The notes under the pieces: generated by a model
Told to the model about the DNA's origin: nothing
Database searches by the model: none
What the model saw: only the letters and a program-made list of their open reading frames with translations
Shown: piece after piece, positions 28,327 through 29,450 of the stretch
Layout of the letters: every line of letters starts with the position of its first letter
Numbering within the stretch: the stretch's first letter is position 1
Source: Gammaproteobacteria bacterium
GTDB lineage: Bacteria; Pseudomonadota; Gammaproteobacteria; M30B25
Assembly (NCBI GenBank): GCA_018402195.1
Contig: JAGYIW010000003.1
Location: forward strand, 8,858-72,857
DNA: 64,000 bases
Direction of reading: 5' to 3'
Made by a program: the position numbers and the translations under genes

Positions 28327-29450
28327 TTATGATGTCTCGAAGAATTTTTCACTTAGTTGACAACGCACTGACTTGGGCGCATTTTTTACATCTTGCAAGC
28401 TTTTTTGCAGCTCTTCTAAAAGAGATTTTGCTGGCGATTCAGTCCTACAGAGGTCTCAATCATCATCCGGCAAAGCAAATCACCAGGACGACCACCGCCC
28501 CCGTGCTGGCAGGCCCTTACTGCGCAAACAGAGAATGACTGTCCACTCTGGGTTTCTGCGGGGATTTTTTCATTCCTTGCCATCCATTGTAAGCGTTACT
28601 TCGATGGTACCACCTAAAGCTGCCGGGTGAAGTCTGCAGTACTTCAGCCAAAGATCCATTGCCATCACGACGAATAATGCATGAGGCCTGACTGTAGGCT
28701 CAACAAGAGATCCCCGACCGTGCCCCCATCCTCCAGCCTCACCCTCACCAGCTAAGCAGTCTACCCCTCTTTCCCCACATCACCCAGTTTTCTACTCTGT
28801 AGGAATTTTACTGATAGGGTTTATTTTTCTTGAACACGACCCTCCCCATGGCAAGAACCACAGGATCTTTGATTACCTTGCCCTGGCCACATAAACTAGA
28901 CAAGTTTGTTGTACAGCAAAAATCCTTATTGTATATGTATGGCCAGATCCTGACAGGTGTCACAATGCTGGCTGGCTGCCTTTTCGCACCAGTACCTCCA
29001 CAAGAATCGCAGTGTACATAGGTAGGCACGCGGAGTTGTACCGTACTACCATGCATGACCTGCTCAGATTCAAATCTAAGGCATAGCCCCTAAATCTCTA
29101 CCTTGCTGGGATTGCGCCGCCTCCCCGGCCAAAGAAATCGCACCAACCTTTACGCCAAACATGTCGCCAGATCATTGAAATCAAAGCCATGTGCGCACGG
29201 GATACCCCCGCAGAAGGATCAGCAGCCACACACCACGTAATGTGATCATAGCGATTGCCGTTTTTTCTGCATTGGATAAAACTGCGTAAGCCTCACCCAC
29301 CTCTTTGAAGTTGGCTTCAGCTTCCTTATCGCCAGGATTGCGATCGGGATGATATTTCATCGCCATTTTTCGATAAGCTTTTTTGATGGTGTTTTCATTG
29401 GCGCTTTTGTCCACGCCAAGCACATCGTAGTAATCTCTTTTTCCTGTCAT
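28327..29450 (-). pseudogene. dnaJ: Chaperone DnaJ, multiply frameshifted
   Basis: The J domain is intact (DYYDVLGV...[31 protein letters not shown]) and then the frame is lost. The zinc-finger piece CDSCGGTGAK is in another frame (28808-29056). The C-terminal [20 protein letters not shown]...FFETS-stop is in a third frame, ending at 28327. Confidence 0.85.

Follow-up and report, generated by a model that had tools for sequence, protein, structure and literature searches.

An eroded dnaJ pseudogene with a surviving J-domain reading frame beside intact dnaK and grpE in a gammaproteobacterium of ~1.3 Mb

The locus described here lies in a window of 64,000 nt (positions 8,858 to 72,857 of contig JAGYIW010000003.1; G000:C23:8858-72857) from a gammaproteobacterial assembly of 1.29 Mb, which is in 68 contigs and 89% complete. 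On the minus strand, grpE (31541-32137), dnaK (29532-31469), a remnant of dnaJ (28327-29450), and an ORF of 2,423 codons (20398-27669) follow one another, and nadK and recN are encoded on the plus strand, divergent from the grpE-dnaK-dnaJ group. The first-pass annotation of the window had suggested comparing dnaJ with its counterparts in sister strains, and the sole other congeneric species in our collection (sister genome G001) proved informative, as it has the same order of recN and nadK on one side and grpE, dnaK, dnaJ, and the giant ORF on the other, with an intact, syntenic dnaJ of 372 aa. Because the flanking genes are the same in the sister, positions 28327-29450 represent the ancestral dnaJ locus.

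Both partner genes upstream of the remnant are intact. The dnaK product (645 aa) scored 1006 bits against equivalog model NF001413 (cut-off 648) and is 80.6% identical to sister DnaK, and the grpE product (198 aa) scored 164.5 bits against NF010748 (cut-off 152). Strict motif matches on the minus strand identified a predicted sigma32-type promoter for dnaK, CTTGAAT-N14-CCCCATAT (31502-31530), and another for grpE, CTTGAAA-N14-CACCATAT (32169-32197). The pattern CTTGAA-N15-C[AC]CCATAT occurs at just two sites genome-wide, one upstream of grpE and one upstream of dnaK, each 32-33 nt from the gene start, compared with ~0.4 sites expected by chance. Both predicted promoters combine boxes of the CTTGAAA/CCCCATnT type with a spacer of ~14 nt and the expected distance to the gene, and the genome encodes RpoH as a 293-aa ORF with a QRKLFFNLR box. 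ORFs for GroES/EL and for FtsH-like proteins are also present. The first-pass description of dnaK and grpE as full-length genes with intact sigma32-type promoters is borne out by the equivalog scores and the two strict sites.

The spacer between dnaK and dnaJ (-32.1 kcal/mol, z = -2.7) contains an 11-bp hairpin (29479-29504, minus strand) that resembles an intercistronic attenuator. An 11-bp hairpin of unrelated sequence occupies the same place in the sister spacer (L015:5354-5380), and this counterpart marks the element as ancestral, neither a new terminator nor a consequence of dnaJ death. Judged from its conservation, the hairpin probably sets the DnaK:DnaJ ratio. On the other side of the remnant, a non-coding spacer of 660 nt (27670-28326) separates dnaJ from the 2,423-codon ORF, compared with 87 nt in the sister. 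Searches with blastn and tblastx found no second copy of this spacer in the genome, and it contains no RNA family or tRNA. An origin as an IS or transposase scar found no support, as the spacer is not repeated within the genome, nor did an origin as the lost 5' end of the giant gene, as it has no similarity to the N-terminus of the sister giant gene. In the dnaJ remnant itself, no repeated element was found and no Rfam family or tRNA on either strand, and promoter-like and terminator-like matches were not enriched over shuffled sequences.

The entire remnant spans 1,124 nt with its original TAA stop (28327-28329), at which the first-pass annotation had exactly placed its lower boundary of 28327. 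Its length of 1,121 nt is nearly equal to the 1,119 nt of the sister gene, indicating that dnaJ has suffered no large deletions. In a frameshift-aware alignment to sister DnaJ, 357 of the 372 residues aligned with 52% identity, at the cost of 16 frameshifts, 13 of which are of the 1-nt-deletion type, and one stop. Alignment to a profile of 13 DnaJ sequences gave 11-24 frameshifts and 1-3 in-frame stops, counts that vary with the alignment penalty. The reading frame departs from DnaJ directly after ...AVLSNAEK, at an A6 run inside helix IV of the J domain (29261-29266, minus strand), and the alignments put the first lesion at ~29255-29258, right after the run. Beyond this point, the G/F, zinc-finger (CDSCGGTG, CDTC.., CGSCHGEG), and C-terminal parts are legible only by hopping among three frames, and an in-frame TAA (28821-28823, minus strand; QEK*TLSVK), a substitution-type lesion, stands at a position occupied by Lys or His in DnaJ proteins.

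The remnant fell below the cut-offs of two DnaJ models, scoring 94.9 bits against TIGR02349 (cut-off 377.2) and 99.2 bits against NF008035 (cut-off 338). Of the features of a class A DnaJ, it has the N-terminal J domain with HPD and lacks a G/F region, four CxxCxGxG motifs, and PF00684/PF01556 matches in one frame; it combines homology to a syntenic gene from end to end with multiple disruptions and a relaxed pattern of substitution, as pseudogenes do. Moreover, a HMMER search of the whole 1.29-Mb assembly with stops read through gave no match to PF01556 (DnaJ_C), a domain present in 30 of 30 relatives. The first-pass annotation had called dnaJ dead, with a break right after the J domain and later parts in three frames with stops, and both the lesion counts and the genome-wide lack of DnaJ_C agree with that reading.

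Multiple observations favour genuine lesions. First, they are limited to 930 nt, and the reading frames of dnaK, 80 nt upstream, and of the 7.2-kb ORF, 660 nt downstream, are uninterrupted; these clean neighbours show that the lesions are local to dnaJ. An artefact of assembly or sequencing, for example an unpolished long-read patch over a truly intact dnaJ, would account for the error-like pattern of mostly single-base indels and unchanged gene length (1,121 compared to 1,119 nt) but not readily for such sharp confinement. Second, many of the lesions lie outside homopolymers, and the in-frame stop in QEK*TLSVK was produced by substitution. Third, residues have been replaced as well as frames broken. 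Outside the J domain, the mean identity to 12 outgroup DnaJs is 0.45-0.475 for the remnant compared to 0.58 for the sister protein, and strongly conserved columns were kept at 100 of 153 positions outside the J domain and at 35 of 39 inside it, although this contrast weakens once the neighbourhoods of lesions are masked; in all, approximately one-fourth to one-third of conserved residues have been replaced. Finally, HMMER detected no trace of DnaJ_C, even when stops are read through. We therefore regard an artefact as very unlikely.

Rebuilding of full-length DnaJ by programmed recoding, either ribosomal frameshifting or transcriptional slippage, deserves even less credence. A -1 slip of tRNA-Lys is conceivable at the A6 run of the first break, but a full-length product would demand twelve or more additional shifts, some forward and some backward, together with read-through of stops, and the shift sites share no motif or context. 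An A6 run also falls short of the lengths at which endosymbionts are known to show transcriptional slippage. The number, directions, and unrelated contexts of the shifts exclude recoding for practical purposes. We consider it probable, jointly with the working of the Hsp70 system proposed below, that dnaJ truly is a pseudogene here, and a comparatively old one, in a host-restricted bacterium whose ~1.3-Mb genome is rich in pseudogenes.

A census with PF00226, a search that the first-pass annotation had recommended, revealed two J domains in the assembly, one in the dnaJ stub and one in a 264-aa protein on contig C3. The latter is a true DjlA (280.2 bits against equivalog NF006948, cut-off 162), with an N-terminal hydrophobic membrane helix, a TerB domain (PF05099), and a C-terminal J domain (PF00226) with HPD, the same membrane-anchored, class C TerB-DnaJ architecture as known DjlA proteins. 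It is 52% identical to the sister copy and has the same downstream neighbour gene. Whereas E. coli uses DjlA as a third, accessory co-chaperone, here it would be the sole complete J-protein. The gene 3' of djlA, encoding ribulose-phosphate 3-epimerase (L002:1898-2458, on contig C3 of G000), specifies 186 aa with an aberrant N-terminus, compared to 220 aa in the sister, and its first ~35 codons have apparently been lost or shifted to another frame.

No second dnaJ or cbpA was found in this assembly by PF01556, PF00226, tblastn, or tblastx. The sister genome encodes DnaJ and DjlA and no other J-protein, so no CbpA or HscB would have been available to compensate for the loss of DnaJ. The first-pass annotation had proposed that a J-protein of the CbpA or DjlA type compensates, and part of this proposal finds support, as DjlA is intact and is the only other J-protein, whereas CbpA drops out with the zero matches to DnaJ_C. 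The unassembled 11% of this 68-contig, 89%-complete genome could in principle hide a further dnaJ or a cbpA coding for an intact J-protein of class A or B, in which case DnaJ function would not be short; however, the decayed gene is the one at the ancestral dnaJ locus, a sister with DnaJ and DjlA alone gives no reason to expect a paralogue, and no contig end carries a partial DnaJ_C match. We judge such a hidden copy highly improbable.

Other DnaK partners were also sought. HscA and HscB were not found in the assembly, and the sole distant DnaK-like match, considered as an HscA candidate, is MreB. ClpB was found neither in this genome nor in the sister; the one candidate, an 860-aa AAA+ protein (G000:C21:11304-13886; L017:1453-4035), is ClpV1/TssH (1145 bits, cut-off 885). 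A type VI secretion ATPase thus appears to persist in this reduced genome. The lack of ClpB in both species makes it probable that ClpB-dependent disaggregation had already been abandoned in the lineage.

Loss of DnaJ is rare in this class of bacteria. Of 400 genomes sampled across the class, 391 keep DnaJ_C, some of them as small as 0.3-0.4 Mb, and the domain is present in 345 of the 348 sampled genomes that are at least 90% complete. We considered the exceptions as parallel losses and rejected those examined as contig-edge cuts or fragmented assemblies: in G134 and G273, a J domain lies at a contig edge, and the remaining exceptions examined are assemblies of 150-580 contigs with only a DjlA-like J domain or, in G079, none. 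Within the 400-genome sample, the present genome is the sole verified case of dnaJ decay within a contig. The first-pass statement that dnaJ is retained even in most reduced genomes holds for the class sample, and is qualified by published losses of individual dnaJ or grpE genes in obligate endosymbionts whose genomes are strongly reduced (Warnecke 2012, as cited in PMC5630943). The present case resembles those losses in that DnaK was kept while a class-A J-protein was lost during reductive evolution of a host-restricted bacterium; it differs in that the genome is still ~1.3 Mb, the pseudogene is recognisable over its full length at the ancestral locus, and the gene is intact in the sister. 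The loss is thus a new example of an already published kind, unusual at this genome size and rare in the class.

The first-pass annotation had also raised very recent decay as an explanation, and this part we reject. With at least 13 frame disruptions and erosion at the level of substitutions, dnaJ is far more heavily lesioned than the other broken chaperone and protease genes of this genome (one or a few lesions each in htpG, hslU, and lon), a disparity indicating that dnaJ died much earlier than these genes were broken. From the excess of replacements, we estimate that ~0.1 neutral substitutions per site would have accumulated since dnaJ was inactivated. The implied rate of ~1 indel per five substitutions is plausible in a lineage with a split mutL; the abundance of 1-nt indels in dnaJ would be in keeping with impaired mismatch repair.

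Several of the genes just named merit description in their own right; mutL, htpG, and hslU carry one to a few lesions each. In the window, mutL (16059-18103, minus strand) is divided between two ORFs, one encoding the ATPase half (358 aa) and the other a half of 291 aa that contains DMHAAHER; mutS, on contig C27, is intact (856 aa). Outside the window, htpG (G000:C56:44756-46688) is split into an 83-aa piece (profile positions 2-70) and a 532-aa piece (107-614), and hslU (G000:C19:9446-10900) has one shift after residue 165, in the intermediate domain, with the remaining ~260 codons open in another frame. Lon, likewise outside the window (G000:C16:3621-6140), is an 839-aa ORF with a compensated double frameshift, by which 15 codons directly past the Walker A motif are out of frame (GPPGVGKT-LNPLPRLPTVLLCVV-LGGVRDEAEIRGH); the expected ...ESIAKATNRAFVR... 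is legible in another frame. Despite its open ORF, the Lon ATPase may be impaired. Together, the states of dnaJ, lon, htpG, and hslU reveal a chaperone and protease network that is eroding one gene at a time.

What survives of dnaJ as an open reading frame is its 5' end. As the first-pass annotation had reported, an ORF of 89 codons (29181-29450, minus strand) retains a J domain with HPD; residues 1-63 are J domain, and the other 26 are an out-of-frame hydrophobic tail (GRAVY +1.12). The stub matched PF00226 with 93 bits over profile positions 1-59 of 63, within the range of 90-108 bits for intact DnaJs, with HPD at residues 34-36. A set of 50 J domains has 22 invariant columns, each of which the stub retains. 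Residues essential in E. coli DnaJ are kept as well: Tyr25, Lys26 (as Arg, like the sister protein), His-Pro-Asp-Arg-Asn, and Phe47. AlphaFold2 predicted residues 11-60 (helices I-III) with pLDDT values of 83-89 and the tail with values below 50. The start codon and, presumably, co-transcription with dnaK are kept, and this leftover 5' end is probably still made.

Two tests addressed preservation of the stub, both post hoc and both marginal. First, no lesion falls in the first 192 nt, compared to 13-25 in the other 929 nt, giving P = (929/1121)^N = 0.087 to 0.009; the J part is richer in homopolymer runs than the rest, making this uniform null model conservative. Second, when lesion neighbourhoods were masked and scoring was limited to columns that the outgroups and the sister both conserve, 31 of 34 were kept in the J domain compared to 37 of 48 to 41 of 55 elsewhere (p = 0.14 to 0.06), and the three J-domain changes are all conservative. 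The lesion-free state and low substitution load hint weakly at continued selection on the stub, and the J-domain part appears better preserved than a relic should be, which favours a stub that is still under selection. On balance, a selected function for the stub seems to us a minority possibility.

Such a function could take the following form within the same pseudogene. The 89-aa ORF would be selected as a minimal J-protein that fires the DnaK ATPase without delivering substrates or that tunes the DnaK-sigma32 circuit, and its new hydrophobic tail might localise it at the membrane or with a partner. The clean 192 nt, the conservative changes, the Pfam score in the range of intact DnaJs, the complete set of invariant residues, and the confidently predicted core fold all speak for this proposal, as do several precedents. 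A fragment of E. coli DnaJ comprising residues 1-108 stimulates the DnaK ATPase and supports lambda replication (Wall 1994, as listed in PMC3486835), phage Rki stabilises sigma32 via DnaK (PMC3486835), and the short J-protein AtcJ, which works with DnaK, adds 21 aa to a J domain (PMC6715715). DnaJ 1-108 is likewise an N-terminal fragment, able in E. coli to activate DnaK, but it includes the G/F region, which the E. coli fragment needs, whereas in the stub the G/F region is out of frame and the J domain ends within helix IV, followed by a foreign hydrophobic tail. AtcJ of Shewanella oneidensis (NF050028) is similar in having ~90 residues and little beyond the J domain, but it is encoded by a dedicated gene of the atc operon, whereas the stub derives from truncation of dnaJ. 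We rejected assignment of the stub to the AtcJ family, as it scored 49.6 bits against NF050028 (cut-off 150) and lacks the PX7W motif, its tail ...YPVRTWL reading P-x3-W. No conservation of the tail was seen anywhere, and among 5.8 billion protein clusters the ORF stands as a singleton, so that no independent lineage offers the same form. With statistics that are post hoc and marginal, we view a selected minimal J-protein as possible, though on the unlikely side.

In our preferred reading, that of a genuine and comparatively old pseudogene, many small indels, at least one nonsense substitution, and extra replacements have deprived the DnaJ co-chaperone of its G/F, zinc-finger, and substrate-binding/dimerisation parts, and DnaK would work with membrane-anchored DjlA as its sole full co-chaperone. 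Stable temperature inside a host would explain why the loss is tolerated. In E. coli, the three J-proteins of DnaK are all dispensable at 30 C, and DnaJ alone is needed at 43 C (10.1101/2020.06.12.147645); a Pseudomonas putida dnaJ null is viable and temperature-sensitive (PMC4263515). The E. coli dnaJ null and dnaJ cbpA djlA triple mutants thus parallel the present genome as cells that live without DnaJ at moderate temperature, although they are laboratory constructs, and they show DjlA partly standing in for DnaJ: without its membrane anchor, E. coli DjlA partially rescued growth at 43 C (10.1101/2020.06.12.147645). DjlA and CbpA are able to substitute for DnaJ in disaggregation (Gur 2004, as listed in PMC3486835). 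E. coli DjlA failed to replace DnaJ or CbpA in some functions, such as curli production (10.1101/2020.06.12.147645), a point against DjlA being sufficient here.

Loss of DnaJ would also be expected to affect regulation. DnaK directs sigma32 to degradation by FtsH (PMC3486835). Without DnaJ to pass sigma32 to DnaK and FtsH, the heat-shock regulon would, by analogy with E. coli physiology, probably be constitutively raised. DnaJ assists the DnaK-mediated targeting of sigma32 to FtsH, so loss of dnaJ probably raises heat-shock gene expression; constitutively raised expression of this kind is usual in endosymbionts.

If the stub is a mere relic, the locus represents ordinary, well-documented reductive evolution, and the main use of the finding is in annotation, where dnaJ should be recorded as a pseudogene and the 89-aa ORF should not be named "molecular chaperone DnaJ". 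There is a lesser chance that, once the body of dnaJ had died, selection preserved its initial 63 codons, which would now encode a minimal J-protein standing on its own, with a newly gained hydrophobic tail, that would fire the DnaK ATPase or set the DnaK-sigma32 loop. If true, the stub would be a natural chromosomal counterpart of the J-domain fragments made in the laboratory and of phage Rki, arising through gene decay and not gene birth. The intact state of dnaJ in the sister species makes an order of losses legible, with ClpB lost first, DnaJ next, and HtpG, HslU, and Lon being lost now. In this genome, which still exceeds 1 Mb, the DnaK system is being pared to DnaK, GrpE, and a single J-protein bound to the membrane, a natural test both of how much J-protein function a bacterium needs at stable temperature and of the usefulness of a bare J domain in vivo.
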